A DNA stretch of 18,592 bases from an uncultured Bacteriovoracaceae bacterium. Its GTDB lineage: Bacteria > Bdellovibrionota > Bacteriovoracia > Bacteriovoracales > Bacteriovoracaceae. Location of the stretch: contig CAZCDT010000060.1 in the NCBI GenBank assembly GCA_964497525.1, forward strand, positions 1 to 18,592, read 5' to 3'. This document shows, in pieces, positions 606-17,393 of this stretch; the stretch's first letter is position 1; each line of letters starts with the position of its first letter. The notes under the pieces were generated by a model that saw nothing but the letters and a program-made list of their open reading frames with translations, had not been told where the DNA came from and did not search any database. The position numbers were made by a program, and so were the translations under genes.

Positions 606-1145
606 CTACATCTCCAAAAAACGCTTAATTTCTGATCTGATATAATTTTTGAACATGGTTTCATTTTTTGCTAATTGCCATATTTTATTTATATTTTCAT
701 ACTTTTCTTCTTTCCCATCGTTTGTTAAAGACAAAAACAAAGATATAGATTGAAGTTGGTAATCACGGATATAGTGATTATAAGCAGGCTCATCTACATT
801 GTAATTTTGAAAAGTAAGTCGTTTCTCGCTTATTTCTTTGGAGAAAGATTCTTTAATTACATCTCTAATATAACCTTCCATTAAATTACAGGTGTAACAA
901 CGGTTAGTTCCATGAAAGTATAGGCCATTAACCACTTTTCCTTTTTGAACCGCTTGCGATTCAACTTGAGAAGTTGTCACTGGTATTGCTTTCGATTGTG
1001 CAACTACGGTTACCGCTTCCTTGTTTTGGTTTTGCGTGCTACTTTGATTACTGCTATTTGGTGATAAACTTGTTATCGCTAAATACACCACAGAAATAAT
1101 AACAAATATTCCTAATATAATTGAAACAATTTTTTTGCTATTCAT
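606..1145 (-). CDS. Membrane-anchored thioredoxin-like protein with a CxxC (CYTC) motif. Function unknown.
   Basis: The track start at 1148 is a TTG. The real start is probably the ATG at 1145..1143 (MNSKKIVSIILGIFVIISVVYLAI), preceded by an AGAGGA SD. It has an N-terminal transmembrane anchor, then a Ser/Gln-rich linker, then a hydrophobic strand followed by CxxC (LYFHGTNRCYTC) as in thioredoxin-fold proteins. Its 5' end abuts the stop of the Trx-family gene. Confidence 0.55.
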   Translation of the reverse strand: MNSKKIVSIILGIFVIISVVYLAITSLSPNSSNQSSTQNQNKEAVTVVAQSKAIPVTTSQVESQAVQKGKVVNGLYFHGTNRCYTCNLMEGYIRDVIKESFSKEISEKRLTFQNYNVDEPAYNHYIRDYQLQSISLFLSLTNDGKEEKYENINKIWQLAKNETMFKNYIRSEIKRFLEM

Positions 1146-1157
1146 CAAATTCCTCTT

Positions 1158-1394
1158 TTATTTACCTTCAAGCAATGCTTTGATTGCCGCAACATCTAAA
1201 ACTTTGCCTACGACTTTTACTTCATCATCAATCGCTAAAGCGGGGGTCATCATAACTCCCATATCTGTAATTTTATCGATATCTTCAACTTTTTCTAAAT
1301 CACATTTGACGCCACTTTCTTTGATTGCCGCGGCAGCGTTATCAAATAGCTTTTTACATTTTGGACAACCTGTACCTAAAATTTGAATCTTCAT
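1158..1394 (-). CDS. Small thioredoxin-family protein, redox-active-disulfide-protein-2-like (CPKC active site).
   Basis: The product MKIQILGTGCPKCKKLF...ALLEGK is about 78 aa. The ATG at 1394 is preceded by a GGAGGAG SD; the track start at 1406 is a TTG inside that SD. A GxGCPKC motif near the N-terminus and the ~78-aa size match this family. Confidence 0.8.
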   Translation of the reverse strand: MKIQILGTGCPKCKKLFDNAAAAIKESGVKCDLEKVEDIDKITDMGVMMTPALAIDDEVKVVGKVLDVAAIKALLEGK

Positions 1395-1419
1395 AAACTC
1401 CTCCAATTACTTTTTAATA

Positions 1420-2733
1420 TTATATTTCTGCTATAGAAAAAAAGTGTCCGTAAATCATGCCAGAGATTGTGGCCATAATTATTACAAGTGTTACAAACAC
1501 CACTGTTTTCTTGGTTCCCATTACAGTTCGAATAACTAACATGTTTGGTAAACTTAAGGCCGGACCAGCAAGCAAAAGTGCAAGAGCTGGCCCTTGCCCC
1601 ATTCCGTTTGCAATAAGTCCTTGCAATATTGGCACTTCCGTAAGAGTTGCAAAATACATAAAAGCACCAGCAAAAGAGGAAAAGAAATTTGCACCAAAGG
1701 AATTACCACCAACAAGATTTACAATCCATTCTTTTGGAATAATGCCCTCCGTCTCTGGCCGACCGAGCAAAAATCCTGCAATGACAACACCGAAAAGAAG
1801 AAGAGGTAAGATTTGTTTAGAAAATGTCCAAGAAGATGAAAACCACTCTTTGGTTTCATCTGTTCCTGTATTTGCAATTATTGATAATAAAATAAAACCG
1901 ACAGTAAAAGGCACAATAGGATTTTCAGGAGATAGAAAATGTACTATTCCCACTGTAATTGTCGCTCCAATAATTTTCCAAAGCCTTAGTCCAAACCACT
2001 GCCAGAGAATTATATTGAAAGCGAAATAAAAAGCTGAGGTGATAATCCATTTACTCGAATATAGTGAAAACCATAGGCCGTGAGTTTCAAGTGGCCTTCC
2101 CCAATTTGCAAAAACTAAAATTCCGACCATGGAAAGAAAATATAAAATATTTTGATATAAAGGCCGAGTGACCTCTGGTTCTGGCAGCATCATCTGCTTG
2201 TTTGATTTTGCAATTTCTTCTTTTCTGAAGATAAAATGCATCAATAGACCAATGACGATACTAAAAACGATAGCACCAACGGCCCGCGCGACACCAAGAT
2301 GAAACCCTAATATTTTCGCAGTTAAAACTATTGCCAAAATATTAATTGCTGGGCCTGAATATAAAAATGTAGTAGCAGGACCAAGGCCTGCACCCATTCT
2401 ATAAATTCCAGAAAAAAGAGGAAGAATGGTACAAGAGCAAACCGCCAAAATTGTTCCAGAAAAAGCGGCAACAGTATATGCCAAAGCTTTATTTGCCTTA
2501 GCACCTAAGTATTTCATCACAGATGCTTGACTAACAAAGACTGAAATTGCTCCCGCAATAAAAAATGCCGGTATTAAACAAAGTAAAACATGCTCTTGAG
2601 CGTACCATTTTATGAGGTGAAGTGACTCCATTATCGCGTTATCAAATTTGGCATTTCCGATCGGCAAAAAATACAATCCAATAAAGATGATAATCATCCA
2701 AAATAGTTTCTTCCATTCCGCTTTAAAATCCAT
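1420..2733 (-). CDS. arsP: ArsP-type permease (PF03773/DUF318 family; organoarsenical efflux permease-like).
   Basis: The 437-aa polytopic membrane protein carries the family-typical C-S-C motif in a TM helix (AVCSCTILPLFSG; compare TPFCSCS in ArsP). It lies 10 nt downstream of arsR in the same orientation. Confidence 0.75.
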   Translation of the reverse strand: MDFKAEWKKLFWMIIIFIGLYFLPIGNAKFDNAIMESLHLIKWYAQEHVLLCLIPAFFIAGAISVFVSQASVMKYLGAKANKALAYTVAAFSGTILAVCSCTILPLFSGIYRMGAGLGPATTFLYSGPAINILAIVLTAKILGFHLGVARAVGAIVFSIVIGLLMHFIFRKEEIAKSNKQMMLPEPEVTRPLYQNILYFLSMVGILVFANWGRPLETHGLWFSLYSSKWIITSAFYFAFNIILWQWFGLRLWKIIGATITVGIVHFLSPENPIVPFTVGFILLSIIANTGTDETKEWFSSSWTFSKQILPLLLFGVVIAGFLLGRPETEGIIPKEWIVNLVGGNSFGANFFSSFAGAFMYFATLTEVPILQGLIANGMGQGPALALLLAGPALSLPNMLVIRTVMGTKKTVVFVTLVIIMATISGMIYGHFFSIAEI

Positions 2734-2743
2734 ATTTCAACCC

Positions 2744-3034
2744 TTATTCTTTGGTATTTATGACTGCCTCAATACAGTCGATATATTTTAATACACACGG
2801 AGTACGCAAACTATAAAACACTTTAAGCCCCCGCTTATCATCTTCGATTATGCCTGCATTTTTTAAAACAATTAGATGGCGTGAAAGTGTCGACTGATCC
2901 ATTTCAAATAATTCATTTAATTCACAAACACACAACTCTTTTTTCTTTGCCAAGGCCTCAATAATTACAAGACGAGCAGGATGCCCCATTGCTTTGATAA
3001 TTTCGGCCCGTTTTTTATATTTTTTTAAATTCAT
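2744..3034 (-). CDS. arsR: ArsR/SmtB-family metalloregulator carrying the As(III)-binding ELCVCEL motif.
   Basis: The track start at 3067 is GTG. The likely start is the ATG at 3034..3032 (MNLKKYKKRAEII..., 96 aa), preceded by a GGAG SD 8 nt upstream. A helix-turn-helix is present (HPARLVIIEALAKKKELCVCELNELF...QSTLSRHL). The Cys-Val-Cys sits at the position of E. coli ArsR ELCVCDL. Confidence 0.85.
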   Translation of the reverse strand: MNLKKYKKRAEIIKAMGHPARLVIIEALAKKKELCVCELNELFEMDQSTLSRHLIVLKNAGIIEDDKRGLKVFYSLRTPCVLKYIDCIEAVINTKE

Positions 3035-3134
3035 TTTTAAACTCCATGCATATTTTGTAATATACACATATTGCTAATTTAAAGCAAGAAGGAATTTTTA
3101 CACCTTTAATCACTACTAAAATAAACAGTGAATG

Positions 3135-4322
3135 CTATTTGACTGGAGAAAGAAGTGCTGCCGCAGAATAATCTCCCGCATGAGAAAATCCTGCCAAAAG
3201 AATATCACCTAAAGAATCAATTTTCTTCGACGAAAGCGCTAACTCTAAATTAATAGGAATCCCTGCTTGAAATAAATTACCTAAACTCTCAAAAGATTCG
3301 ATATGCCGTTCTTTTGGGATTTGTATAGCTTCACGCCAATTTCGCAAAAATGTATGATTTGGTTGATTGGTAATCAATGCAGCTAAATCACGGCCCTTTA
3401 TTTTACTACGCTCAAGAATCTCATTCATTACTTTTGGCACCAAGCGAAAACCGCGCATAACAATCATAAAAACAGCACTACAACGATCAAAAGAGGATCG
3501 CAGTTTTGTGCTAGACTCCCCCATTACTCCACTAATTCCTAAAAATGATTGCTCTGTTTCGGGAAAGGAGCTTTTTCCTTCTGGGCCTAAAAGCACCAAC
3601 GCATTTAGATTTTTTGCCAAGGAATAAATCTCATCATAAATACCAGCTCTAGTCGCTTCAGCGCCGATCCAAAAAATAATCTGATTTTTATGTTTTAGTA
3701 AATCATCGATAAATAATTTATCAACATTGCAATTAGCAGTAGAAGAGTACGGCCGGATCTTATTATCTTTTTCATTTAAAATTAAAACATCTGATATTTG
3801 AATATTTTTAGGCAAAACAATAACTGCTGGGCGACTGTTCTCTAGGGCCCTCTTGTATGCCATTAGTACAATTTACTGAGTTCTCTTAGTATCTACAAGC
3901 TTTTCTGCATAACAAGTAATAGCTTTAAATATCGTCATAATAGAAAAGCTATCACCAAGTCCACTACTATCTTGGAAAGCACCATTACCTTCAAGAGAAA
4001 GAGATGGTGCTCCAACAAAAACTAGCATCGGAATTCGGGAATTATAGGCCTCGCCAAGTCCTGCTAGAATATTTAGGGCCGCACCACCTGACGTTGCTAA
4101 GACCACGGCCATCTTACCTGATATTTTGAAAAAACCATCTGCCATTGTCACTGCACCAAATTCATGTTTTGCTAAAACGATTCTTATATCAGGAAAAATT
4201 GTTCGTCTTTTTCTTTCCAAAGAATCAAAAAGATCCTCAATGTTTGCACCACTTATTCCAAAAAAATGAGTCATCTGTAAATCAGAGACCAATATTTTAG
4301 AAATTGCATCAACTACTTTCAA
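3135..4322 (-). pseudogene. Thiamine-pyrophosphate enzyme of the acetolactate synthase/pyruvate oxidase family. It is interrupted by an in-frame TAA and truncated before the C-terminal TPP-binding domain.
   Basis: ORF 4322..3873 is a TPP_enzyme_N (PYR) domain (FGISGANIEDLF...HEFGAVTMADGFFKISGKMAVVLATSGGAALNILAGLGEAYNSRIPMLVFVGAPS). ORF 3863..3135 is the central domain (IIFWIGAEATRAGIYDEIYSLAKNLNALVLLGPEGKSSFPETEQSFLGISGVMG). Both lie in the same frame (both starts ≡2 mod 3), separated only by TAA at 3875..3873 plus three codons. No GDG...N TPP-binding motif follows before arsR. A GGAG SD and a TTG start are retained at 4322. Confidence 0.6.
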
Positions 4323-6304: not shown

Positions 6305-6751
6305 CTATTTGCCTACAGGGGCCAAAGCTTTTACAACACAAGTTGTGCTGTTTAATTTTAATTCAAATTCAGAATATAGATCTTCCATAACTTGTTTAAA
6401 TGCAATTCCATCACTTGTTGCGACATTGCCATTTGATTCAATAGAGATTTTAAAAGTTGTTGCCGTAACTCCCTCATTAAAAATAATTTGATCAACAGCA
6501 TCTGCAATAACTTCTCCAATTCCATTAAAAATATCTGTTACAATATTTCCTGATGATGCTTTTTTCCTATCAAATGCAACCCGACAAACTTCTCCATCAA
6601 GACTTAAGTTAACATCCTGTAAATCAGCACTACTTAGAGATGTCAACCGAACATCACCTCTAGAATTTTTCATTTGAACTTCTAAATCAACCATTTGCGC
6701 GCTAGCGGCAAGAGATAAGGTACTAAGAGCAATTGCAACACCTAATTTCAT
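6305..6751 (-). CDS. Small secreted protein of unknown function (signal peptide).
   Basis: The ATG at 6751 is preceded by an AAAGGAG SD 5 nt upstream. The track start at 6778 is TTG. The N-terminus MKLGVAIALSTLSLAASAQ is a typical Sec signal with an AxA site. I recognised no family. Confidence 0.6.
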   Translation of the reverse strand: MKLGVAIALSTLSLAASAQMVDLEVQMKNSRGDVRLTSLSSADLQDVNLSLDGEVCRVAFDRKKASSGNIVTDIFNGIGEVIADAVDQIIFNEGVTATTFKISIESNGNVATSDGIAFKQVMEDLYSEFELKLNSTTCVVKALAPVGK

Positions 6752-6991
6752 AAAAACTCCTTTAAAATCTATTAACAATGAAACAAATTACTGCACACGT
6801 CCAAATAAAAACACTTATCCATGAATAATATGCTTTAATATATTTTTTGCAATCTGGTCTGTTCTTTTTATATGGCCTGTCTAAAAACAAGACACTTTTT
6901 GAAACAATTTCACATCTTGCAAGTAATTAAGCACTTATTTAAAAGCTAAGATACTATCTCTTTACGGCATCAGTTTTTTAAGAGAGGACAA

Positions 6992-7558
6992 ATGGCACTA
7001 ACCTTTGACCACATTCATTCTGGATATGACACTTTCATGAAAGTCGTTGGTTTATACCGCATAGATCAACTCAAAGAGTTATTGCAATTAAAAGGCAATG
7101 AATCTCTTTTGGATGTTGGTGGTGGTACAGGACATATCGTGTCTTTTTTAATTAACAATCTAAAAGATGCGACAATCATCGATGAAAGCCAACAGATGCT
7201 TTCCCATTTATCTAATAATGACAAAATTACGAGCATAGTTGGAGATGCAACACAACTTCCCTTTAAAGATCAAAGCTTTAATCGAATTATAATGTGCGAT
7301 GTTTTACATCATCTAAAAGATCAAACAAAAGTGCTCGCTGAAATAAAAAGGGTTTTAACAGATGACGGCATGTTTGTAATGTATGACTTTGATAAAGACG
7401 CTATGCTTGTAAAAATTCTCGTTTGTTTAGAAAAGATTTTTTTTAAAAATGTTTTATTTCACAACGCTGCATCATGCGAGAATTTATTAATTACAGCAGG
7501 ATTCAAAATTAAAAACTTTATAAAAGGGAATATATATTATGTCGTTTGTACAAAATAA
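6992..7558 (+). CDS. Class I SAM-dependent methyltransferase (small, ~188 aa).
   Basis: Motif I is LLDVGGGTGHIVSFL, followed by an acidic post-I residue (IIDES), motif II (GDATQLPFKDQSFNRIIMCDVLHH) and motif III (LTDDGMFVMYDF). A GAGG SD lies 5 nt before the ATG. The size and motif layout resemble PmtA/UbiE-like small methyltransferases (inference). Confidence 0.8.
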   Translation: MALTFDHIHSGYDTFMKVVGLYRIDQLKELLQLKGNESLLDVGGGTGHIVSFLINNLKDATIIDESQQMLSHLSNNDKITSIVGDATQLPFKDQSFNRIIMCDVLHHLKDQTKVLAEIKRVLTDDGMFVMYDFDKDAMLVKILVCLEKIFFKNVLFHNAASCENLLITAGFKIKNFIKGNIYYVVCTK

Positions 7559-8438
7559 ATTAAAGAGAGCAAAGCTAATGCTAAAGCTCCTTGGCCACCA
7601 TCTCTGTAAAAATTTTGTTACTGATGCTGATTATGCGAAAGAATACGATACGGTATCTTTAACCTATGATATTTGGCAAGCACAAATGGGCAAACATACC
7701 GATGCCATGATTACTGCCTTAAAAAAATATTTACCAGAAAATAGCTCAAACAATTTTAACGTATTAGATATCGCTTGCGGAACAGGATATATCACAAATG
7801 CGATAAACTTAATTAATCCAGAAGCTAAAATTACAGGAATTGATATATCTGCAGGCATGTTAAAAAAGTGTCAAGAAAATAATAAAAACTGTAAAAACCT
7901 AACTCTTTTAAACCAAGATGCTCTATCCTTTTTAAAAAATAGTTCACAAAAATTTGACCTTATAACTTGTGGTTGGGGAATTTCTTATTTTGACCCAGAA
8001 ATTCTTCTTAAAGCATGTGCTAATGCATTAACAAAAAATGGGCTCGTTGCTTTTATTGGAAATAGGCAGGGAACACTAAATGGTTTATTAGAGTGCTACT
8101 TAAATGTCATGACAAAGCATCAAGATCAAGTTGGAAAGCTTTTAAATATTTCTTCCAAACTTGCAAAAGATAAAAACGACTTCCAATCATGGTTTGAAAA
8201 ATCTGGTTTTGTAACACTTAAAGCATGTGATGGAGTTGAAGTTGTCTGTAAAAAAACAGCGAATGAACTATATCACTGGATTCAAGACTCTGGAGCAGGA
8301 GCTGGAACTAGAGTTATGTTTAAAAATGAATTTGTTATCAAACCATCGATTATTAGTGAACTTTCAGAAAAAATGAAAAGCCAAAACCAATACTGCATCA
8401 ATCATAATTTCGTTTGGATTGTTGCAAGAAAAATGTGA
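7539..8438 (+). CDS. Class I SAM-dependent methyltransferase (UbiE/CmoA/BioC-like N-terminal pattern) with a ~130-aa C-terminal extension.
   Basis: Motif I is VLDIACGTGYITNAI, with ITGIDIS post-I, NLTLLNQDALSFL and FDLITCGWGISYF. The preceding YD...YD...G.H pattern is typical of UbiE/CmoA-type enzymes. It overlaps the upstream methyltransferase by 20 nt, indicating an operon. Confidence 0.8.
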   Translation: MSFVQNKLKRAKLMLKLLGHHLCKNFVTDADYAKEYDTVSLTYDIWQAQMGKHTDAMITALKKYLPENSSNNFNVLDIACGTGYITNAINLINPEAKITGIDISAGMLKKCQENNKNCKNLTLLNQDALSFLKNSSQKFDLITCGWGISYFDPEILLKACANALTKNGLVAFIGNRQGTLNGLLECYLNVMTKHQDQVGKLLNISSKLAKDKNDFQSWFEKSGFVTLKACDGVEVVCKKTANELYHWIQDSGAGAGTRVMFKNEFVIKPSIISELSEKMKSQNQYCINHNFVWIVARKM

Positions 8439-8447
8439 GGAGACTTA

Positions 8448-9781
8448 TGTATTTATCAAATTTACCAACAATTATTCGTATGATTTGCGATAAAAATGTT
8501 AGAAATTTTTTAAAGCAAGCAGATCAAAAATTCTCATCAAATGCAGAGAGTAAAAACTATAGCAAAAAACAGCTTTTTGAAATCGTAAAAGCGATGTTTG
8601 ATGGTGAAAAAATTGTTCATCATCAAGGGAAATATGTGTTTTCATCTTTTTTACCTCCGGTACCATCTGGAGCATTAAAAAATGGAATAAGAAAAGAGAG
8701 TCGTTCATACAGTGATAGGGTAACATCTAAAAGAGATGCTCCCGTTTCTATGTATATGGCAATCACAAAAAGATGTCCTTACCGTTGCGCGCACTGTAGT
8801 GCTGCAATTTCAGATGGCAAAGATGAATTAACAACAAATGAGTGGCAAAAAATAATTGCCGATCTTCAAAATATGGGAGTGGGGATTATTGGTTTAACAG
8901 GAGGCGAACCTCTTCTTCGAAGCGACGTAGAAGAACTAATTTCTTCAATTGATGATCGCTCTGTTCCTTTTTTATTTACAAGCGGTGCTGGCCTTACCAA
9001 AGAGAGAGCTCTTAGCTTAAAAAGAAGTGGTCTTTTTGCTATAGGCATTAGTCTTGATTCATATATTAAAGAAGTTCATAATCAAAGAAGAGGTGGCAAT
9101 AAGGCCTTTGATCTTGCAATCGCTGCTATGAAAAATGCCAAGGCCGCCGGTCTTTACACTATGGCACAAATCGTTGTTTATAAACATCAACTAAACCGTG
9201 ACTACTTCTTTAAATATTTAAAATTTGTAAAATCAATCGGAGTACACGAAGTTCGAGTACTGGAACCAATTCGATGTGGAGAATTAATTAAGGAAAATGA
9301 CGATGTTTTTTATACCGCAAAAGATCGTAAACTTTTAATAGAACTTCATCATGAAGCAAATCGAAGGCCATGGCTTCCAAAGGTTACAACTTTTGCATAT
9401 ACCGAAAGCTATGAACGTTTTGGTTGCGGGGCCGGAGTACAGCATTCATATATTAATGAGAAAGGCGAACTTTTTCCTTGCGACTTTTTGCCGATGAGTT
9501 TTGGTAACGTAGTTAAAGAAGGTGTAAGTACTCTTTGGTCAAAAATGAGCGAGATCGTTGGAATTCCAAAACCTCACTGTTTTGCCCAAGTAGTAAATCA
9601 CGATTTGTGGAAAATATCTAAAGGCGAACTTCCTTTAGACACACAACGCTCCACAGATCTTTGTGTTAAGTACCAGGCAAAAGAGTATCCTCTAATTTAT
9701 AAAATGCTCCAACAATCTCCGGAGTTAAAGCTAAAAAGATCTCTTGTGGCAAAAACAGTGACAACAACGATAATAAAATAA
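8448..9781 (+). CDS. Radical SAM enzyme with a C-terminal SPASM/twitch-like Cys cluster and a ~105-aa N-terminal extension.
   Basis: The ATG at 8448 is preceded by a GAGGAG SD 5 nt upstream. The track start at 8414 is a TTG inside the end of the upstream methyltransferase. The CxxxCxxC motif is TKRCPYRCAHCS (Cys 109/113/116 from the ATG), with a GGEP SAM-binding motif (GLTGGEPLL). The C-terminal region reads RCGEL...FGCGAGVQHSYINEKGELFPCDFLP...PHCF...DLCV, consistent with a SPASM/twitch auxiliary-cluster domain. Confidence 0.8.
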
Positions 9782-9792
9782 GGATCTATTGC

Positions 9793-11343
9793 ATGGTAAC
9801 AAAAATCATATTTTTACTTTTTTTAACAACAAAACTAATCTTGCCAACTGCTATTGCAACAGAAAGTGGCGATGGAACTTTTGACGATCATAGTTTTTTA
9901 TATGAACAAACATCATCATTTTTAGATGATATAACAGAGCGCTCTTTTTATGCTTTTAAGAAAGAGAGACATACACTAGACGCTTTAAATGCAGAAGAAT
10001 ATCCTTTTGTTTTAAGAACAAGAGTTCCACATGAAGTTGTTATCGTTGACAAGGGTATTGCTGAGTTAGAACTGCGACTACAAATGATTAATAAGGCAAA
10101 AAAAAGCATTAACTATGAAATGTTTTTGATCGAACATGACGAAAGTACAAAAATAGTAATGCAACACTTGATGAAAAAAAGTCGAGAGGGCGTTGATGTA
10201 AAAATTTTAATCGATGATCTTCCTTTACTCGTATATTTTGATAAAGCATATATGGCCGTTTTACTTGAAAGTGGAATCAAAATAAAAACATATAATAAAA
10301 GTAATGCTGTTCAACTTTTTGGAAAAGGACAGTATCGAAACCATCGAAAATATATTTCGATCGACCAAAAATTTGCTCTGGTAACAGGACGTAATCAATC
10401 AAATGAATACTTTAATCTTGGCGAAAAATTAAATTATTATGATAGAGGAATCCTTGTAACAGGACCAATAGTCTCTGACCTTGATAAACAATTTAATGCT
10501 TTTTGGCAGCACTCTTATACTACAGAATACAAACCAAAAACCAAAGATATAGACGCATACTTAAAATGGACAAAAAAAGAGAGAGATTATTTATACTCAA
10601 TAACAGATGATGACCTTTTGCTCAGAGATTTAATAAATAATCATGGCGAAGAAGAACTAAAAAAAATGCCTCGAGGTTTTTGCTCAAACATGATGATTAT
10701 AAGCGATTTGCCAGGTAGAGGAATGAAGAAAAAAAGACTACATAGGGAAATTTTTAAAAGGATACAAGAAGCAAGAGATACTGTCTTAATAGAATCTCCA
10801 AGTGTTATTCTTGAATTATTTGAAAGAGATATTTTCAGAGAGTTACTACAAAAAAATGTCGAAATAAAAATTAATACAAACACCTATATGTTTCCATTAA
10901 AAGATGCAGCCGCAATGCTCGACATAAATGTTTCTAATGATAATATGAGCTACTGGAACAGAAAAGGCGTTATTGTTTACACTCCAACAGGAAAAGAAAC
11001 AATACACGAGCCACAAGTAAATTTTAAAAATAGACAAAATAATTCTGGTTGGAATATTCATACAAAATCGATCATCATCGATCATAAAGATTTCATGATC
11101 GGAAGCTATAATATTGATCCAAGATCAAAAGAGTTTTCATCTGAAATGGCAATTTTTTGCGAAGGGAATAAAGAATTAACAAAAGAAGTTGAAGATCTTT
11201 TTTATCAAAGAGCAAATGACGGTGTTTTATTTGAAAAAAACAATAGACCTCCTGGGGGATTTTTGAAAGATACGAGCACAAAAACAAAGATATTATATAA
11301 TCTGCAAAAACCTTTTGTGCATCTTTTTAAATGGCTTCTTTAA
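9793..11343 (+). CDS. Secreted phospholipase D / phosphatidyltransferase superfamily protein with two HKD motifs.
   Basis: The signal peptide is MVTKIIFLLFLTTKLILPTAIA. HKD motif 1 is HRKYISIDQKFALVTGRNQSN (HxKxxxxD...GxN). HKD motif 2 is HTKSIIIDHKDFMIGSYNID (HxKxxxxD...GSxN). It starts 11 nt after the radical-SAM gene's stop, on the same strand. Confidence 0.8.
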   Translation: MVTKIIFLLFLTTKLILPTAIATESGDGTFDDHSFLYEQTSSFLDDITERSFYAFKKERHTLDALNAEEYPFVLRTRVPHEVVIVDKGIAELELRLQMINKAKKSINYEMFLIEHDESTKIVMQHLMKKSREGVDVKILIDDLPLLVYFDKAYMAVLLESGIKIKTYNKSNAVQLFGKGQYRNHRKYISIDQKFALVTGRNQSNEYFNLGEKLNYYDRGILVTGPIVSDLDKQFNAFWQHSYTTEYKPKTKDIDAYLKWTKKERDYLYSITDDDLLLRDLINNHGEEELKKMPRGFCSNMMIISDLPGRGMKKKRLHREIFKRIQEARDTVLIESPSVILELFERDIFRELLQKNVEIKINTNTYMFPLKDAAAMLDINVSNDNMSYWNRKGVIVYTPTGKETIHEPQVNFKNRQNNSGWNIHTKSIIIDHKDFMIGSYNIDPRSKEFSSEMAIFCEGNKELTKEVEDLFYQRANDGVLFEKNNRPPGGFLKDTSTKTKILYNLQKPFVHLFKWLL

Positions 11344-12253
11344 CTTGTTCTTGAAATTTGCTTTGCAAGAGTTCATCAAGCCATTTTTTTAAAGCATTAT
11401 CATATAAGTGCTTGGCAAGATATTTAAATCCTGATTTGCCTAAATGAAATGGATCTTGATACAGCGCTCCAGTAAGTATTCTGATTTTAAACATTGCTTC
11501 AGTATCATTTTCTATTTCTGGATTTCCTCCAATTTGCATTGGATTTTCTGGTGGAGAAATTTCTTCTGGTGGTAGAGTCTGTCTAGGCATAAGACCTACG
11601 CGAGAGTTCCCAAAATAATAATGCATCAATCCAAAATGATGAACATATCTAACATTATCACCATTATCAACTTTAGAAATTGCCTTACTTATTCTAAGTA
11701 ATCGAGCATTCATAACATCTGGAGATGGTCTTCCATGGTGATTAAAGGCCTTAACAAATTTTGGTAATAATTTTGTAAATTTTAAAAAATTCGGATAGTC
11801 ATATCCACTTACAAGAACTTTTATATCCGAACGCACGTCTTGTATTTTATCAATAATTTTTTGAACATTCCTATAAGATTCCTCAAATGCCGCCCACTCT
11901 TCTGCTGGTGTCATCTCAGGATTCCAATGGTATCTCATATCATTGCCACCAACACTAAGAATTACTATTTTTATATCTACACTATCTCTAATTTTTTTTT
12001 CAATTCTATTTAAATATTTTTCGCTGGCCCATTGATGCGATGTTGATCCCTTGTCTGTCATATTAATACAACCACGAATTTTTACTTTATTATAAACTTT
12101 ATTCTCCTTTAGCACTCCGGCCAATGAACCATTTAGACACATAAATGCGGCCCAACTATCACCCATCATAAGAATTGCGGGTCTTTCAATATCTTTAGAA
12201 AAAACTAAATTAGAAAAAAGAAGTATCGCAAGGATTAATGATATTAAACGCAT
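11327..12253 (-). CDS. Secreted SGNH/GDSL-family hydrolase (lipase/esterase).
   Basis: The ATG at 12253 (MRLISLILAILLFSNLVFS, a signal peptide) is preceded by a GAAGGAG SD. The track start at 12268 is a TTG in that SD. Block I is GDSW (LMMGDSWAAF), block III is GGND (LSVGGNDM) and block V is DxxH (DPFHLG). Its 3' end overlaps the convergent PLD gene by 17 nt. Confidence 0.8.
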   Translation of the reverse strand: MRLISLILAILLFSNLVFSKDIERPAILMMGDSWAAFMCLNGSLAGVLKENKVYNKVKIRGCINMTDKGSTSHQWASEKYLNRIEKKIRDSVDIKIVILSVGGNDMRYHWNPEMTPAEEWAAFEESYRNVQKIIDKIQDVRSDIKVLVSGYDYPNFLKFTKLLPKFVKAFNHHGRPSPDVMNARLLRISKAISKVDNGDNVRYVHHFGLMHYYFGNSRVGLMPRQTLPPEEISPPENPMQIGGNPEIENDTEAMFKIRILTGALYQDPFHLGKSGFKYLAKHLYDNALKKWLDELLQSKFQEQVKEAI

Positions 12254-12445
12254 TTTTAACTCCTTCAAATATATTACGACTTTATGCTAAAAACACAGCA
12301 ACGAATAATTCTTTTTACATACTTTTTCCACAACACCGAGCGTTAACTGATATTTTTTACACGCTTTTTTACCGGTTATCCTTTGTATTTTAATAGAAGT
12401 TTGTTACTTTTATTTTCTAATTTTATATCAAACAAGGAGTTTAAA

Positions 12446-13276
12446 ATGTCTGAATTTGAAAAAGCAATGAATGAAATCTTTAGAGGGCAAAATCCCCTAC
12501 TAAAAGGTGGATTTTTTCTTATTATTTTCTTAGGCATTATTATTGTACTGTCATCATACTACATCATAAATCCAGGACATCGAGGAGTGATGGTAACTCT
12601 TGGTTCTGTGTCAAAAGATTTTAAAGCAGAGGGACTTGGGTTTAAAATGCCTCTCATTTCTCAAATAATACAAATACCAGTTAAGCAAATTACCGTCGCA
12701 ACAAATGCTGAATCATATTCGTCAGATCTTCAGCAAATCAATATTGGTCTTTCTGTTTTATATCGTATTCCAGAACAATCTGTTGTCCCTCTATATCGCC
12801 AATATGCAGGAAATGTTTTTGAAGCATTAATTGATCCAAGGGTTCAAGAAGCAGTGAAAGAAGCAGTGGCACTTGAAAGTGCAGAAAGCATTGTTAAAAA
12901 AAGAGAGTTAATAAAAAATAGATCTCTGGAACTTGCGAGAAAAAAAATCGGAGATATTTTAATTATTGAAGATTTAGTGATTAGAAACATTGGCCTATCA
13001 AAAGAGTTAGAAAATGCAATTGAACAAAAAATGGTGCAAGAGCAAGAAGCTGCTAAAGCAAAATTTACCCAGCAAAAAGCAGAGATTGAGGCCAAGACAG
13101 CTATTATTAAAGCACAAGGGGAAGCACAGGCTATCAGTGTTCGCGGAAAAGCAATTAGAGAAAATCCTGGAGTTATTGATTTACAATTAATAGAAAAATG
13201 GAATGGAGTTAGTCCTTTGGTTGTTGGAGGAAATGGTAAAGGAGCAAATATTTTATTACCTATTAATCAGAAATAA
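12446..13276 (+). CDS. SPFH/band-7 (prohibitin/HflKC-like) membrane protein.
   Basis: The ATG at 12446 is preceded by an AAGGAG SD. The track start at 12383 is TTG. It has an N-terminal TM (FFLIIFLGIIIVLSSYYII), a PHB domain, and a C-terminal coiled-coil rich in Ala/Glu/Gln/Lys (EQKMVQEQEAAKAKFTQQKAEIEAKTAIIKAQGEAQA). Confidence 0.8.
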   Translation: MSEFEKAMNEIFRGQNPLLKGGFFLIIFLGIIIVLSSYYIINPGHRGVMVTLGSVSKDFKAEGLGFKMPLISQIIQIPVKQITVATNAESYSSDLQQINIGLSVLYRIPEQSVVPLYRQYAGNVFEALIDPRVQEAVKEAVALESAESIVKKRELIKNRSLELARKKIGDILIIEDLVIRNIGLSKELENAIEQKMVQEQEAAKAKFTQQKAEIEAKTAIIKAQGEAQAISVRGKAIRENPGVIDLQLIEKWNGVSPLVVGGNGKGANILLPINQK

Positions 13277-13523: not shown

Positions 13524-14237
13524 ATGGCCCTTTTGGGTGAAATGGCCGGAGGTATGGCCCATGAAATAAATACCCCTCTTGGAGCAATCCTTCTTAGTCT
13601 AGGACAAATAAAAACGGCCATTAACAAACCAGTTATTCCAAAAGAGTTAATCACTGAAATTGTTGATGATATCGAAAGTTCTGTTGCTCATATTTCAAAA
13701 ATAATTAAAGCATTAAAAAGTTATTCAAGGGATGGAAAGAATGGTCGTTTTGTTTTTTCTAATTTTTTAGAAATCATAGATGATGCAATTCAAATTTGTG
13801 AATATAAATTAAAGCATCACTCTATTTCTATTGAAGTAAAAAATAGCGATAATTCAAAAGAAAACTGGGGACTAGAGTGTAATCCAACTCAAATAAATCA
13901 AGTTATCGTAAATCTAGTCAATAACGCAAGAGATGCAATTAAAGAACACAAAACTAAATGGATCAAAATTGATATCGATAAAGATGATCAAAAAATTTAT
14001 ATTACCATAACTGATAGCGGAAAAGGGATTCCACAGAATGTTCAGAAAAAAATTTTTAATCCTTTCTTTACAACAAAAGAAATAGGAAAGGGCACAGGGC
14101 TTGGTCTTTCTGTTTGCAAAGGAATAATTGAATTACATGGAGGAACGATTCAATTAGATAAAGAGAATGAAAATACCTGCTTTAAAATAGATTTACCAAG
14201 AAGACCACCTCCTCCAGAGGAAGAATCAAATGAATAG
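13524..14237 (+). CDS. Cytoplasmic, sensor-less histidine kinase (HisKA + HATPase_c only).
   Basis: The H-box is MAHEINTPLGAIL, the N-box NLVNNARDA, G1 ITDSGKGIP and G2 GKGTGLGLSV. There are no TM segments and no sensor domain, and the product is only 237 aa. The start is uncertain: there is no SD, and the in-frame upstream codons already look like part of the dimerisation helix. The 3' end overlaps the response-regulator gene by 8 nt. Confidence 0.75.
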   Translation: MALLGEMAGGMAHEINTPLGAILLSLGQIKTAINKPVIPKELITEIVDDIESSVAHISKIIKALKSYSRDGKNGRFVFSNFLEIIDDAIQICEYKLKHHSISIEVKNSDNSKENWGLECNPTQINQVIVNLVNNARDAIKEHKTKWIKIDIDKDDQKIYITITDSGKGIPQNVQKKIFNPFFTTKEIGKGTGLGLSVCKGIIELHGGTIQLDKENENTCFKIDLPRRPPPPEEESNE

Positions 14238-15576
14238 TGAGATTTCAATTTTAGTTGTTGATGATGATGAAAAATTTAGAAAAACAGTTAAACGCAGTTT
14301 GCTGCTAGCTGATTATCAAGTTATGGAAGCAGATAATGGTGCTGATGCTAGTTTAATGTTGGATAAAAAAAGATTTGATTTAATAATTTCAGATATCAGG
14401 ATGCCAAAGATGGATGGTATCGAATTGTTAAATATAACCAGAAAAAAACACTCTCATATACCTGTAATTTTAATGACAGGTTTTTCTGAGATAATTGAAA
14501 TAACTGAGGCCTACGATCTTGGGGCACAAGGCTTTTTAAATAAACCATTTAAAGAAGATGCACTAATTCATGAAGTCGAGACAATTTTAAACAAAACAAA
14601 AGAGTCTTACTCTAAGACAAATGATTTTCATTTAAAAAACAGATTTAGATTCATTGACATAGGAGATTTCATAAACGGTAGCCAAATAAAATATCCTATT
14701 TTTTTAAAACTAAATGATAAAAAATTTGTAAAAATTGCTAACGAAGGAGAAGATCTTTCTGAAGATAGAATTGAAGTCCTAAGGAAGCGTGGGATTAAAG
14801 AACTGTATTTAGAAAAGGATCATTTTCAAGATTATGTCCAACATACATTAGGGTTTGCATATCATGTTTCAGCATCTCCACTTTATACAAATGAGCAAAA
14901 AGAAGATGTTTATATTACAACATGTAATTTATTAATAGAGCTTGGTATCAGTGAAGGAATGGATCCAATTATTTTTGAACAATCTTTAACATTAGTGAAA
15001 CAAACCCTTCTGCTTGTAATTGAGCAAGACGCACTATTTGCCCATCTTACGAAACTAAAAAACAGTTCTGAACGCGTCTACTCACATTGCATGAGTACTG
15101 CTCTTATTGCAATGATGCTTGCAAAAAAAGCACAGATTGTTTCTGTACATAATCATATGAAAATTATTATTGCAGCATTTTATCACGACATCGGACATGA
15201 TTATGAAAATAAAGAGTTAATGCAAAAATCACGTTTCCTCTATAACGAACACGAAATGGCCTTATATAAGGCCCACACGGAAAAAGGTGCAAAAATTCTT
15301 TCTGATATTCCAGAAATAACTCAAGATATTGTTGATATCGTTGCTCAGCACCACGAGACCGTAGATGGTGGCGGTTTTCCAAAAGGGCTAACAAAACATG
15401 CGATTCATCCACTTGCAAAAGTATTGCGGCTAGCTGATGAATACAGTAACTGGTTTATTGGTGTTCCCGGTTATGTAAAATTATCAAATCATAAATTAGT
15501 AATAGAAAAAATAGAATCAAATCATCAAAAGTATGATAAAAATCTATTAGAATATCTTAAATCACTATTTAAATAG
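14230..15576 (+). CDS. Response regulator: REC, then a DUF3391-like linker region, then an HD-GYP phosphohydrolase (GYP replaced by GFP).
   Basis: REC features are ILVVDDDE, the phospho-acceptor in DLIISDIRMPKMDG, and LNKPF. The middle region (IDIGDFINGSQIKYPIFLKLNDKKFVKIANEG...) resembles the domain found N-terminal to HD-GYP domains. The HD motif is FYHDIGHD, followed by HHETVDGGGFPKG. A GAGGAAG SD precedes the ATG. Confidence 0.8.
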   Translation: MNSEISILVVDDDEKFRKTVKRSLLLADYQVMEADNGADASLMLDKKRFDLIISDIRMPKMDGIELLNITRKKHSHIPVILMTGFSEIIEITEAYDLGAQGFLNKPFKEDALIHEVETILNKTKESYSKTNDFHLKNRFRFIDIGDFINGSQIKYPIFLKLNDKKFVKIANEGEDLSEDRIEVLRKRGIKELYLEKDHFQDYVQHTLGFAYHVSASPLYTNEQKEDVYITTCNLLIELGISEGMDPIIFEQSLTLVKQTLLLVIEQDALFAHLTKLKNSSERVYSHCMSTALIAMMLAKKAQIVSVHNHMKIIIAAFYHDIGHDYENKELMQKSRFLYNEHEMALYKAHTEKGAKILSDIPEITQDIVDIVAQHHETVDGGGFPKGLTKHAIHPLAKVLRLADEYSNWFIGVPGYVKLSNHKLVIEKIESNHQKYDKNLLEYLKSLFK

Positions 15577-16610: not shown

Positions 16611-17391
16611 CTACTTAAGCATCTTGAAACTTTTAAACAATTTATCATCCTGTCCTGTGTGAATAATTAAATATCTCCAAATTCGCTTCCAATCCAAAGA
16701 GTGATCTTGTAAATAATCTACACACTCTGGGTACTTTCTTTTTAAAAGTGATCCCAAATTATTCCAAAGATAAACATCCAGGGGCATTTTTTGAGTATCA
16801 CAATTAAGACATACAAATCCTCCATCTGTAACATTTAAAGCAGAAATATTTGATTCGTTTAATGTTTTTTGACAGTGGATACAGCAGTCAAATTGAAAAA
16901 AGATTCCAAGTTCATGAATTATTTTTAATAAAAAAGTTATTATGTGAGCAGAGATATTTAACTTTAAATTTGTTGCATCCTTTTCTAAAGCAAAAATCGC
17001 ATTAGAAAAAACGGTAAAAAAACCTTGATTGTCGGTCATCTCATAAGAAAATGAATCATTTAAATTAACTTTTTGAGTAAAAATATTTGCACACTCTAAA
17101 TATAAGCATAGAAGTATAAAAGCATTGTGATTCTCTCTTATCTTTTTGTGATACCACAATGCACTCCACTCTTTTGCTGTATACAAATCTGTTGTATTAC
17201 TTGAATGGTTTAATTCAACCATTAACATATAACCTATTTCTAAAATAGAACTTTTTATTTTTCCCACCACCAGCACCACCATAAAAAATAGCAGATACCT
17301 GCATCCCACTACGAAGAAGCAAAGTACCAATAATATCCCTTTCTTTGTAGGGAATTTTTTTTATTAATATTCCTTCTATTTTTTTTTGCAT
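16611..17391 (-). pseudogene. recO: recO (DNA repair protein RecO), disrupted by a +1 frameshift in a homopolymeric A tract.
   Basis: ORF 17397..17215 encodes the RecO N-terminal OB-fold region (MQKKIEGILIKKIPYKERDIIGTLLLRSGMQVSAIFYGGAGGGKNKK). ORF 17330..16611, in another frame, continues from ...KIKSSILEIGYMLMVELN... through the helical domain and a C-terminal Cys4 zinc finger (CCIHCQ...CLNCD). The two frames overlap at GGGAAAAATAAAAAG, forward coordinates ~17242..17254. Deleting one A there restores ...GGGKNKSSILEIGYM.... Confidence 0.7.
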
Positions 17392-17393
17392 AA

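Follow-up and report, generated by a model that had tools for sequence, protein, structure and literature searches.

The two methyltransferase genes and the radical-SAM gene at the centre of the window (the whole 18,592-nucleotide stretch of DNA analysed here, from an uncultured Bacteriovoracaceae bacterium) very probably form, as gene order across genomes indicates, an evolutionary unit of three genes rather than four, beside which the gene of a phospholipase-D-family protein would be a bystander. Of the explanations weighed below, we lean, at slightly better than even confidence, towards one that combines this three-gene unit and its bystander with a membrane substrate.

Organization of the locus

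The first-pass annotation had proposed a co-directional, operon-like group of four genes, and all four open reading frames are present on the plus strand at the coordinates given then. MT1 (6992..7558, 188 aa), a small class-I SAM methyltransferase (Methyltransf_11, E=2.4e-20), overlaps by 20 nt the second cassette gene, MT2 (7539..8438, 299 aa), a class-I SAM methyltransferase with a cap domain. The third gene encodes the radical-SAM enzyme (rSAM; 8447..9781, 444 aa), and its stop lies 11 nt ahead of the gene for a secreted phospholipase-D-family protein with two HKD units (PLD; 9793..11343, 516 aa), with AAGGA overlapping the rSAM stop. The 20-nt overlap and the 11-nt gap are as first reported, whereas the gap from the MT2 stop (8438) to the rSAM ATG measures 8 nt, not 9. 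This ATG at 8447 is preceded by GGAG and backed by an alignment with 31 homologues, from which the TTG at 8414, taken as the start by the mechanical ORF call, receives no support. Also as first described, a convergent gene for a secreted SGNH/GDSL hydrolase (11327..12268, minus strand; Lipase_GDSL_2, E=1.7e-8), given here for context only, and an SPFH gene (12383-13276) lie beyond; the 3' end of the former overlaps that of PLD by 17 nt. The rSAM-PLD-SGNH arrangement recurs in a second sample, on a contig (L001) identical to this one.

A 213-nt intergenic region (6779..6991, plus strand) separates the MT1 ATG from a divergent 157-aa ORF (6305-6778, minus strand) and presumably holds the cassette promoter; a promoter scan of these 213 nt returned nothing above shuffled sequence. 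Between the four genes, terminator-like and promoter-like sites did not exceed the shuffled-sequence level either, and no Rfam family matched anywhere in the window. The earlier impression that the combination matches no described cassette is borne out: no identifying model from NCBIfam, Pfam or PADLOC reached its cutoff, the PDB yielded neither a close sequence relative nor a solved structure that identifies it, and our literature searches found no paper describing it.

A three-gene unit recurs across bacteria and archaea

We compared 70 non-redundant loci, each with enough upstream sequence, and found the order MT1-MT2-rSAM in 51, always with an MT1 orthologue (29-40% identity) directly upstream of MT2. 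One methyltransferase is kept in 15 further loci (11 MT2-rSAM, 4 MT1-rSAM), and rSAM stands alone in the remaining four. Typical sizes are about 190 aa for MT1, about 290 aa for MT2 and about 424 aa for rSAM, and junctions typically range from -4 to +10 nt, with a median of -4 nt. Since order and junctions recur in 51 of 70 loci and in many phyla, the spacing of the first three genes is more than chance. When ORFs of at least 80 aa were clustered over 83 loci (the cassette loci and this window), the only recurring families were MT1, MT2 and rSAM, and Pfam annotation of the neighbours (128 downstream, 120 upstream) revealed no enriched partner, the largest family having six members. The cassette is translationally coupled and self-contained, without a conserved fourth gene. 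Its hosts are dozens of bacteria and archaea, mostly anaerobic; many are halophilic or alkaliphilic Clostridia, and the others include Spirochaetota, Thermotogaceae, WOR-3, Holophaga, the PVC group, Asgard and DPANN, and it has evidently spread by horizontal transfer through many such lineages.

Features of the encoded enzymes

The domain calls of the first-pass annotation stood for the methyltransferases, the radical-SAM core and the secreted two-HKD PLD; the SPASM label needs correcting. Although rSAM matches Radical_SAM at 77.7 bits, its SPASM match is marginal, at 23.0 bits for a cutoff of 21.5, the alignment lacks the CX2CX5CX3C block that marks a full SPASM domain, and only four cysteines are conserved outside CxxxCxxC (C327, C345, C378 and C406). 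Because this amounts to a single auxiliary-cluster cysteine set, rSAM is, by its sequence, a twitch-like and not a full SPASM enzyme, with a one-cluster C-terminal domain. A conserved N-terminal domain of about 100 aa is helical with a beta-hairpin, the C-terminus is hydrophilic, and the conserved residues are mostly polar, which would fit a head group and a soluble metabolite equally well. The rSAM clade with methyltransferase neighbours carries FLPPFPS and GCGAGxQH motifs. The best structural matches are mainly peptide-modifying enzymes (SkfB, SuiB, PqqE and anSME, also ChlB, TigE and CteB), with BlsE, MoaA and viperin also ranking high, and GDGT-MAS is a detectable relative.

Both methyltransferases match the generic class-I models Methyltransf_11/25/31 (Methyltransf_31/25 for MT2), and the top NCBIfam matches of MT1, UbiE/MenG and DVU_1556, all fall far under their cutoffs. 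In MT2, residues Y36, Y43, D77, G81, G83, D102, Y150, N175, G252, G256 and H289 are invariant and family-specific. Its AF2 model (pLDDT 96.9) comes nearest, at a TM of about 0.6, to the small-molecule methyltransferases BioC, Tam, JHAMT, OxaG/RoqN and TmtA/GtmA and to phosphoethanolamine methyltransferases. The N-terminal helix of MT2 has a net charge of about +4 and a hydrophobic moment not above that of control segments. Neither transmembrane nor signal segments are predicted for MT1, MT2 or rSAM, which thus appear soluble. In natural fusions MT2 is joined with rSAM (P0309, 684 aa; P0344, 645 aa), with Lnt or with multi-pass membrane domains.

Variant architectures suggest a membrane-bound substrate

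The membrane or lipid theme proposed at first had leaned on the PLD, SGNH and SPFH neighbours, which, being specific to this genome, are weak evidence; it draws its support instead from variants found elsewhere. In locus L059 MT2 is fused to an Lnt part that scores 205 bits against an equivalog cutoff of 133. N-terminal multi-pass transmembrane domains, of two unrelated families, occur in five MT2 cluster representatives, and one of these (L092) has as its flanking genes a membrane protein and an rSAM of the family (35% identity over the full length). In the Petrocella clade a cardiolipin synthase gene (319 bits; cutoff 290) lies directly upstream of MT2-rSAM, and the locus continues into KamA-like and GNAT genes. 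Five PVC loci read DUF3419, LysO-like membrane protein, MT1, rSAM, so that a BtaA-like gene and a membrane protein stand in MT2's place; the betaine-lipid synthase BTA1 is annotated as DUF3419 (PMC10685587). These variants are a minority (six among the 149 representatives of MT2 clusters, a single Cls clade and five loci from PVC bacteria), and together they suggest a membrane-bound substrate. Tentatively, and with a little less than even confidence, we propose that the cassette acts from the cytoplasmic side of the membrane and that its substrate is a lipid or carries a lipid anchor.

An exported small molecule would also fit the commonest of the occasional neighbours, exporters (MATE in three loci, EamA in three, LysO in five, MFS in three, ABC-2 in five) and alpha/beta-hydrolases, the latter directly after rSAM in at least four diverse loci. 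On this reading, which we consider rather unlikely, the cassette would make or detoxify a soluble compound (such as a betaine-type solute, a xenobiotic or a metalloid in methylated form) that is then exported, and the membrane fusions would reflect coupling to export and not a lipid substrate. The MT2 folds, the polar conserved residues of rSAM and its resemblance to BlsE, MoaA and viperin all agree with it, as do MarR/XRE regulators nearby, the halophilic and alkaliphilic Clostridia among the hosts and the KamA-like and GNAT genes of Petrocella. However, Pfam recognises neither the Lnt::MT2 protein nor the two independent multi-TM::MT2 fusions as members of a transporter family, diacylglycerol is what BtaA-type enzymes act on, no exporter family exceeds about 7% of loci, and a riboswitch was found upstream in none of the 16 loci searched.

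The phospholipase-D gene is probably a local neighbour

PLD has a hydrophobic, signal-like N-terminal segment and two PLDc_2/HKD units, in which the family never varies at H184/K186/D191 and H423/K425/D430. It reaches 96.6 bits against the cardiolipin-synthase equivalog, whose cutoff is 290, and PLD-family proteins of a Bdellovibrio sp. and Halobacteriovorax marinus are relatives at about 31% identity. Taken by themselves, these nearest named relatives would make this low-GC genome probably a relative of the Bdellovibrionota, and PLD a secreted enzyme typical of its lineage. The synteny search in related genomes, while upholding MT1-MT2-rSAM, went against the proposed four-gene unit: this genome apart, PLD lies downstream of none of about 70 cassette loci, and MT1, MT2 or rSAM lie near none of 82 loci of its relatives, secreted PLDs of the Bdellovibrionota type. 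The SGNH gene, too, is absent from every other cassette locus and PLD locus. We interpret PLD as probably a neighbour specific to this genome, co-transcribed and outside the cassette pathway. Transcription of the cassette most likely reads through into it, and with a junction of 11 nt the genes are plausibly co-expressed and so, to some degree, functionally coupled. The rSAM of this window ends in a unique 20-aa tail that reaches to the PLD start, as fits a secondary juxtaposition. The closest PLD relative, P0125 (45% identity), has no contig placement, so a link between PLD and the cassette may exist in the immediate lineage.

It is therefore improbable that all four genes serve one pathway, in which the cytoplasmic trio would build or remodel an unusual phospholipid, methylated or cross-linked, and the secreted PLD would exchange or remove its head group on the membrane's outer face. 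The tight junction, which lacks a terminator-like site and has its ribosome-binding site overlapping the rSAM stop, would suit such a pathway, as would the identical arrangement in the second sample, the membrane-linked variants, and a PLD-superfamily enzyme (Cls) adjoining MT2-rSAM in the Petrocella clade as well. That Cls, however, is TM-anchored, of housekeeping type, upstream and not orthologous to PLD; the H. marinus and Bdellovibrio sp. relatives sit in other contexts; and a Sec-type signal places PLD in a different compartment from the soluble Fe-S/SAM enzymes.

Other readings of the radical-SAM enzyme

The peptide-modifying twitch/SPASM enzymes that head the structural matches would also allow rSAM to be a maturase, of a RiPP or of a protein encoded elsewhere (possibly a lipoprotein), with both methyltransferases acting on the same polypeptide. 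Its N-terminal domain is placed where RiPP recognition elements sit, and the fusion of MT2 to Lnt might hint at lipoprotein N-termini. Yet Pfam gave no PqqD/RRE match, the 700 bp next to the cassette contain no short ORF (18-90 aa) that is conserved beyond near-identical genomes, flanking genes in several loci abut the cassette and leave no room for one, and neither a protease nor a dedicated exporter is conserved. This reading is quite doubtful, and the first-pass suggestion of a matured and exported product loses ground both to the missing precursor and to the twitch-like rSAM.

Mss is a bacterial synthase of membrane-spanning lipids, which it makes by coupling two fatty-acyl tails (Sahonero-Canavesi 2022), and its homologues are reported from Firmicutes, Thermotogae, Spirochaetes, PVC, gamma-proteobacteria, candidate phyla, Asgard and DPANN (PMC13159169). 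That spread resembles that of the rSAM family, Sarcina MAGs carry the cassette, and GDGT-MAS is detectable as a relative; even so, membership of rSAM in the Mss family is highly improbable. Mss is reported in all Thermotogales, whereas the rSAM family has a single Thermotogaceae member, a MAG with Clostridia as its nearest relatives, and cultured Thermotogales, Thermoanaerobacter, Moorella and Dictyoglomus are absent from the best 80 genome loci and best 120 protein matches. By description, the basis on which we set the two apart, Mss has hydrophobic C-terminal regions, unlike the hydrophilic one of rSAM, and coupling tails requires no methyltransferases.

An anti-phage defence system of viperin-like rSAM, methyltransferases and a DrmC-like PLD nuclease, hinted at by partial PADLOC matches (pVip, 53 bits, rSAM core; mad2 methyltransferase domain, 58-65 bits; DrmC, 31 bits, one HKD), is effectively refuted, as these matches are confined to generic catalytic domains, PLD is secreted with two HKD units like lipid-acting enzymes and unassociated with the cassette elsewhere, and no other defence components are present.

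Proposed function

For the three-gene unit acting on a membrane substrate, we envision that the first step would be a SAM-dependent alkylation of a lipid nucleophile, as suggested by the BtaA-like homologue of SAM:diacylglycerol aminocarboxypropyl-transferase that replaces MT2 in PVC bacteria. MT1 and MT2 would methylate nucleophiles (O, N or S) of the same molecule, and MT2, fused to rSAM in some organisms, may work with it as a physical complex. The radical-SAM enzyme would abstract a hydrogen atom from a polar portion of the substrate and then, via its single auxiliary cluster, carry out either an oxidative step (dehydrogenation or decarboxylation) or the formation of a C-C or C-X bond. Taken together, the cassette is best read as a widespread and undescribed SAM-dependent tailoring module, outside any curated family, that may act at the membrane.

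Gene organization in the window

Four co-directional open reading frames lie on the forward strand of the window, at the places given in the first-pass annotation. MT1 (6992-7558; 188 aa), a class-I SAM methyltransferase, is followed by a second such enzyme, MT2 (7539-8438; 299 aa), whose gene overlaps that of MT1 by 20 nt, then by a radical-SAM enzyme (rSAM), and finally by PLD (9793-11343; 516 aa), a secreted phospholipase-D-family protein that starts 11 nt past the rSAM stop. The rSAM start was assigned to the ATG at 8447, which lines up with the position where 31 homologues begin and has a GGAG just before it; because of this start, the gap between MT2 and rSAM is 8 nt, not the 9 nt annotated earlier, and the other two spacings stand as first described. 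An AAGGA overlaps the rSAM stop, just ahead of the PLD start. At its C-terminus, rSAM carries about 20 extra residues (PELKLKRSLVAKTVTTTIIK, window 9722-9781), absent in all 31 aligned homologues and modeled with a pLDDT below 50, which end 11 nt before PLD begins. Between 6200 and 12500, no terminator-like or promoter-like signal rose above the level of shuffled sequence, and Rfam searches of the window and 15 loci found no riboswitch upstream of the cassette. The GC content of the cassette (0.342) and its GC3 equal those of the host, leaving no compositional sign of recent transfer; the arrangement is therefore not recent. An identical rSAM–PLD–SGNH contig is contained in a second sequencing run, and the convergent SGNH hydrolase and the SPFH protein near the cassette are as previously described.

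Several other genes in the window merit brief mention. On the reverse strand at 606-3067, upstream of the cassette, lies a separate small operon for a regulator of the ArsR family, an ArsP_1-type permease (437 aa) and a CxxC-containing protein (180 aa) that has no Pfam match. Two adjacent reverse-strand ORFs at 3135-4322 resemble remnants of genes or a chimeric gene, the first being a 149-aa TPP_enzyme_N fragment and the other a 242-aa protein in which a TPP_enzyme_M piece is joined to a FabH-type ACP_syn_III_C end. At 13524-15576, the gene for a 237-aa HisKA/HATPase histidine kinase, which has neither a sensor nor a TM region, overlaps that of a response regulator with an HD-GYP-type (HD_5) output domain. 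A 353-aa DEAD/Helicase_C protein with partial PADLOC matches to DpdF and PsyrT adjoins a RecO_C-containing protein at 16611-18455 on the reverse strand.

A widespread three-gene cassette

Searching for rSAM homologues returned more than 3000 matches, including hundreds of full-length relatives of about 424 aa at 45-53% identity, which their sources name merely "radical SAM protein". The contexts of five such relatives showed the order MT (~189 aa)–MT (~287 aa)–rSAM, with overlapping or abutting genes and PLD absent. We then scanned one genome per species and kept the best 80 loci, the majority of which belong to Clostridia. Other bacterial hosts are Spirochaetota, a Thermotogaceae MAG, WOR-3, Holophaga foetida, Aminicenantes, a gammaproteobacterial MAG, Saccharibacteria and, within the PVC group, Akkermansia, Kiritimatiellia, Lentisphaerales and Victivallales; archaeal hosts are Asgard, Bathyarchaeia and Nanobdellota. 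Among the 70 loci that are non-redundant and include 1.7 kb or more of upstream sequence, the complete MT1–MT2–rSAM order is found in 51, MT2–rSAM in 11, MT1–rSAM in 4 and rSAM alone in 4, and the median junction is -4 nt at both cassette junctions.

When ORFs of at least 80 aa from the cassette loci and the window were clustered, MT1, MT2 and rSAM were the sole recurring families. Neither this clustering nor a Pfam search of 248 flanking proteins (the two nearest genes per side; 128 downstream, 120 upstream) yielded a conserved fourth gene, with no Pfam family occurring in more than six of the flanking proteins. A full-library search with MT2 gave 28 cluster representatives at E<=1e-30 and 164 at E<=1e-10; among the matches listed, P0309 (684 aa) and P0344 (645 aa) are natural single-polypeptide MT2::rSAM fusions, the former keeping the family motifs FIPPLNSKSF and GCGAGCQH. 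These fusions, together with the recurring gene order, therefore define the MT–MT–rSAM cassette as a conserved, physically cooperating unit.

No curated family, structure or paper giving the cassette a function was found in Pfam, NCBIfam, PADLOC, the PDB or the literature, and literature searches linking a radical-SAM enzyme to betaine lipids, to phospholipid head groups or to a pair of methyltransferases returned nothing relevant. The earlier impression that the combination is not a described cassette is borne out, all matches being at superfamily level. We conclude that the cassette is real, widespread, SAM-dependent and composed of three genes, and that it lies outside every curated radical-SAM and methyltransferase family tested.

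Anatomy of the radical-SAM enzyme

The Pfam Radical_SAM profile places rSAM within the superfamily (77.7 bits against a cutoff of 29.5). Radical-SAM cores are partial TIM-barrels in which a CxxxCxxC motif binds the SAM-cleaving [4Fe-4S] cluster; the corresponding residues, C110/C114/C117, are invariant across 32 rSAM sequences, as are many polar residues of the barrel. The AF2 model can be overlaid on SkfB, BlsE and MoaA, yet sequence identity to SkfB, BlsE, SuiB, PqqE, anSME and MoaA is only 16-21%. Profile searches of the PDB with rSAM, and searches with MT1 and MT2, gave remote or no matches. N-terminal to the barrel, a conserved domain of about 100 aa comprises three helices and a hairpin and carries the motif GEK...Y...FLPPFPSKAF.

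The first-pass annotation had called rSAM a SPASM enzyme. SPASM domains hold two auxiliary clusters through a seven-cysteine motif, CX9-15GX4C...CX2CX5CX3C...C. Besides the CxxxCxxC triad, the seven invariant cysteines of rSAM comprise C327 (GCGAG), C345 (PCDF), C378 and C406, and these four extra cysteines would suffice for a single auxiliary cluster. The family alignment lacks the CX2CX5CX3C block that marks true SPASM domains, and the Pfam SPASM match (23.0 bits, cutoff 21.5) spans only the first ~40 residues of the domain. The earlier domain calls thus hold at the superfamily level, and the full SPASM assignment does not; judged by its cysteines, the C-terminal domain would be consistent with a one-cluster twitch type.

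Placement in a housekeeping family, such as anSME- or MoaA-like enzymes, was named beforehand as an outcome that would speak against a novel cassette, and no curated cutoff was reached. Against NCBIfam equivalog models, rSAM scored 114 bits for NirJ2 and 104 for AhbD (cutoff 500 for each), 100 for PqqE (cutoff 381), 83-87 for MoaA (cutoffs 284-325) and 88 for the mycofactocin maturase MftC (cutoff 265). The cassette may work "like" twitch/SPASM tailoring enzymes that are paired with class-I methyltransferases. Unlike the known twitch/SPASM enzymes, however, rSAM misses every curated family cutoff 3-5-fold, has four auxiliary cysteines in place of the seven-cysteine set, possesses its own N-terminal domain, and is partnered by two class-I methyltransferases, one of them sometimes fused to it, with no adjacent precursor peptide.

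Anatomy of the two methyltransferases

Class-I methyltransferases share a Rossmann-like fold, a GxGxG SAM motif and an acidic residue ending strand 2. Both MT1 and MT2 match the generic class-I models of Pfam and NCBIfam, MT1 matching Methyltransf_11 over the full profile length. Their best named matches (UbiE/MenG, DVU_1556, BioC) reach a third to half of the curated cutoffs: MT1 scored 68.7 bits as a UbiE-subfamily member (cutoff 158) and 67.5 as DVU_1556 (cutoff 155), and MT2 scored 65 as BioC (cutoff 185). MT2 is still further from PmtA (30.7 bits against 390), the glycine/sarcosine methyltransferase models (GSMT/SDMT) give about 27 bits against 350, and neither MT1 nor MT2 reaches the NCBIfam cutoff for ArsM.

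In MT2, the class-I hallmarks are present as an invariant LD(F/I)ACGTG motif and an invariant D102. Its AF2 model (pLDDT 96.9) has an alternating beta/alpha core and matches class-I methyltransferases in Foldseek at E ~1e-15. Fold neighbors at a TM of ~0.6 are small-molecule methyltransferases with a cap domain, namely BioC, trans-aconitate methyltransferase, JHAMT, OxaG/RoqN, TmtA/GtmA and phosphoethanolamine methyltransferases. The N-terminal helix of MT2 is basic, and in a test for an amphipathic helix its hydrophobic moment was not above controls.

Variant architectures and the substrate

Variant architectures of three kinds, which make up a minority of loci, link the cassette to the membrane. 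On at least three independent occasions, MT2 has become joined to a membrane domain. In a Nanobdellota MAG (L059:5129-9266), MT1 is followed by a 769-aa Lnt::MT2 fusion and rSAM, and an alpha/beta-hydrolase lies some way beyond them; the Lnt part exceeds its equivalog cutoff, and the same fusion recurs in the representative library as P0234. Five MT2 cluster representatives carry N-terminal multi-pass domains of two unrelated families, and at one locus (L092) the multi-pass::MT2 protein is flanked by a membrane protein and a family rSAM (35% identity, full length). The Petrocella clade lacks MT1 and has a bona fide cardiolipin synthase gene ahead of MT2–rSAM. In five PVC loci, a DUF3419 protein and a LysO-like membrane protein take the place of MT2, followed by MT1 and rSAM; the betaine-lipid synthase BTA1 is annotated as DUF3419 (PMC10685587).

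As a separate observation, a KamA-like aminomutase and a GNAT acetyltransferase follow the cardiolipin synthase–MT2–rSAM genes in Petrocella sp. FN5 (L040:5341-11801), a pair that, on reading the sequences, resembles the ablA/ablB osmolyte genes.

We interpret these architectures tentatively: radical-SAM and double-methylation tailoring of a membrane-bound substrate is the most likely mode of action among those considered. The lipid theme proposed in the first-pass annotation gains from the minority of variant loci elsewhere and loses from the window itself, where MT1, MT2 and rSAM all look soluble, with no signal or TM segment. A soluble, exported metabolite as the product is possible, if somewhat unlikely. 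The commonest occasional neighbors of the cassette, exporters and regulators, would suit an exported small molecule equally, and the fusions and substitutions just described point to the membrane.

PLD as a probable bystander

A genuine four-gene lipid pathway that includes PLD, the unit originally proposed, has the tight spacing in its favor and is improbable on the comparative evidence. The cassette is absent near PLD relatives at the Halobacteriovorax marinus locus, the Bdellovibrio locus and 80 metagenomic loci (21-34% identity), a count that leaves out the closest relative, P0125 (45% identity). Synteny in related genomes was the measure set for the four-gene unit, and at these loci the four genes do not stay together. 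The unique rSAM C-terminal tail reaching up to the PLD start fits a secondary juxtaposition, as does the pairing of an exported PLD with cassette proteins that lack signal or TM segments. PLD is very probably a lineage-typical bystander transcribed together with the cassette, which consists of three genes.

PLD itself contains two PLDc_2 units. Two-HKD enzymes of the phospholipase-D superfamily have two HxK(x)4D motifs, and both are found here, HRKYISID (184-191) and HTKSIIID (423-430), invariant across 10 family members; PLD accordingly belongs to this superfamily. Its N-terminus holds a single hydrophobic, signal-like segment. Such a leader is present in nine of the ten closest family members, the tenth and shortest, from a Bdellovibrio sp. 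MAG, starting after it. Like cardiolipin synthases, PLD has two HKD motifs with flanking GGxN and IGSxN signatures, and its N-terminal half resembles Cls models; it differs from them in having what looks like a cleavable signal peptide where they have two N-terminal TM helices, and its family is restricted to Bdellovibrionota-type sequences. It falls below the ClsA/ClsB equivalog cutoffs (96.6 bits against 290 and 65.3 against 281). PLD has few homologues; among those with a named source, the closest come from the Bdellovibrio sp. MAG and H. marinus SJ and share ~31% identity with it, and no sequence relative was found in the PDB.

At the Bdellovibrio sp. MAG locus (L091:5562-8404), the PLD homologue is preceded by a 424-aa radical-SAM protein, which is not the cassette enzyme and belongs to the unrelated N_Twi_rSAM family (291 bits, cutoff 170).

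Comparison with known systems

By analogy, the nearest conceptual counterparts of the cassette may be betaine-lipid synthesis by BtaA/BtaB and the methyl-ester logic of BioC/BioH. BtaA/BtaB resembles the cassette in a SAM-dependent alkylation that precedes SAM-dependent methylation by a small Methyltransf_11-type enzyme, and in the five PVC loci rSAM is accompanied by the BtaA/BTA1-type (DUF3419) gene and an MT1-type gene. The window, in contrast, has no DUF3419 gene, and a profile comparison gave no specific kinship between MT2 and DUF3419 (hhalign probability 0.7%). Betaine-lipid synthesis is not known to include a radical-SAM step, and our literature search found none. The cassette hosts are anaerobes, in which DGTS is not tied to cassette genes. 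As for the BioC/BioH pairing of a carboxyl O-methyltransferase with an esterase, the best NCBIfam match of MT2 is BioC, AbBioC is among its top fold matches, and an alpha/beta-hydrolase with weak BioH/MenH similarity directly follows rSAM in at least four diverse loci. However, no bio genes lie near cassette loci, and the hydrolase is missing from the window and most loci.

[quoted passage not shown] In contrast to GDGT-MAS, rSAM has fewer clusters, and it differs from Mss/Tes in its hydrophilic C-terminus and obligatory methyltransferase partners. Mss homologues have a reported taxonomic spread similar to that of the rSAM family, and the whole of Thermotogales is reported to carry Mss (PMC13159169). 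A member of Mss would be an orthologue of Tmari_0825 / WP_129545148.1, in a family expected throughout Thermotogales and in MSL-producing Clostridia. Among our best 80 loci and 120 best proteins, Thermotogaceae contribute one MAG, whose nearest relatives are Clostridia. On this indirect phyletic comparison rSAM is probably not an Mss orthologue: the universality is not seen, and the expected fold and hydrophobicity do not agree either. The archaeal rSAM loci L043, L045, L048, L052 and L059 (Asgard, Bathyarchaeia, DPANN) fall in groups with reported Mss homologues (PMC13159169).

PADLOC matches to defense systems (DISARM, prokaryotic viperin, MADS) are partial and at domain level, and no partner genes occur in the window. 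A peptide or protein substrate, to which the resemblance to SPASM tailoring enzymes might point and which the earlier RiPP/exported-product alternative assumed, is improbable: in ~80 loci no conserved short ORF that could encode a precursor lies within 700 bp, and no PqqD-type Pfam match was obtained. RiPP maturases have an adjacent precursor gene and an N-terminal recognition element, in the position that the three-helix-plus-hairpin domain occupies in rSAM.

Implications

The cassette is common, crosses the divide between bacteria and archaea, keeps its gene order tightly and exists in fused forms. It also carries a caution for annotation: PLD lies 11 nt away and is nonetheless evolutionarily unrelated to the cassette, so tight spacing alone does not equal pathway membership. 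In a bolder proposal, which we consider unlikely, the cassette would make an undescribed membrane lipid whose head group or lipid anchor is altered by radical-SAM chemistry and methylated on O or N, and its producers would include diverse anaerobic Bacteria as well as Asgard, DPANN and Bathyarchaeia archaea; the co-transcribed, secreted PLD would process the product further in this predator-like genome, and some Asgard "Mss homologues" would be members of the cassette rSAM family. If lipid modification proves true, a radical-SAM step would be added to the bacterial chemistry of head groups and lipid anchors, and the cassette could explain methylated or betaine-type lipids of anoxic environments that are so far unassigned. 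The cassette likewise bears on the reading of radical-SAM "lipid synthase homologues" from Asgard and DPANN genomes.
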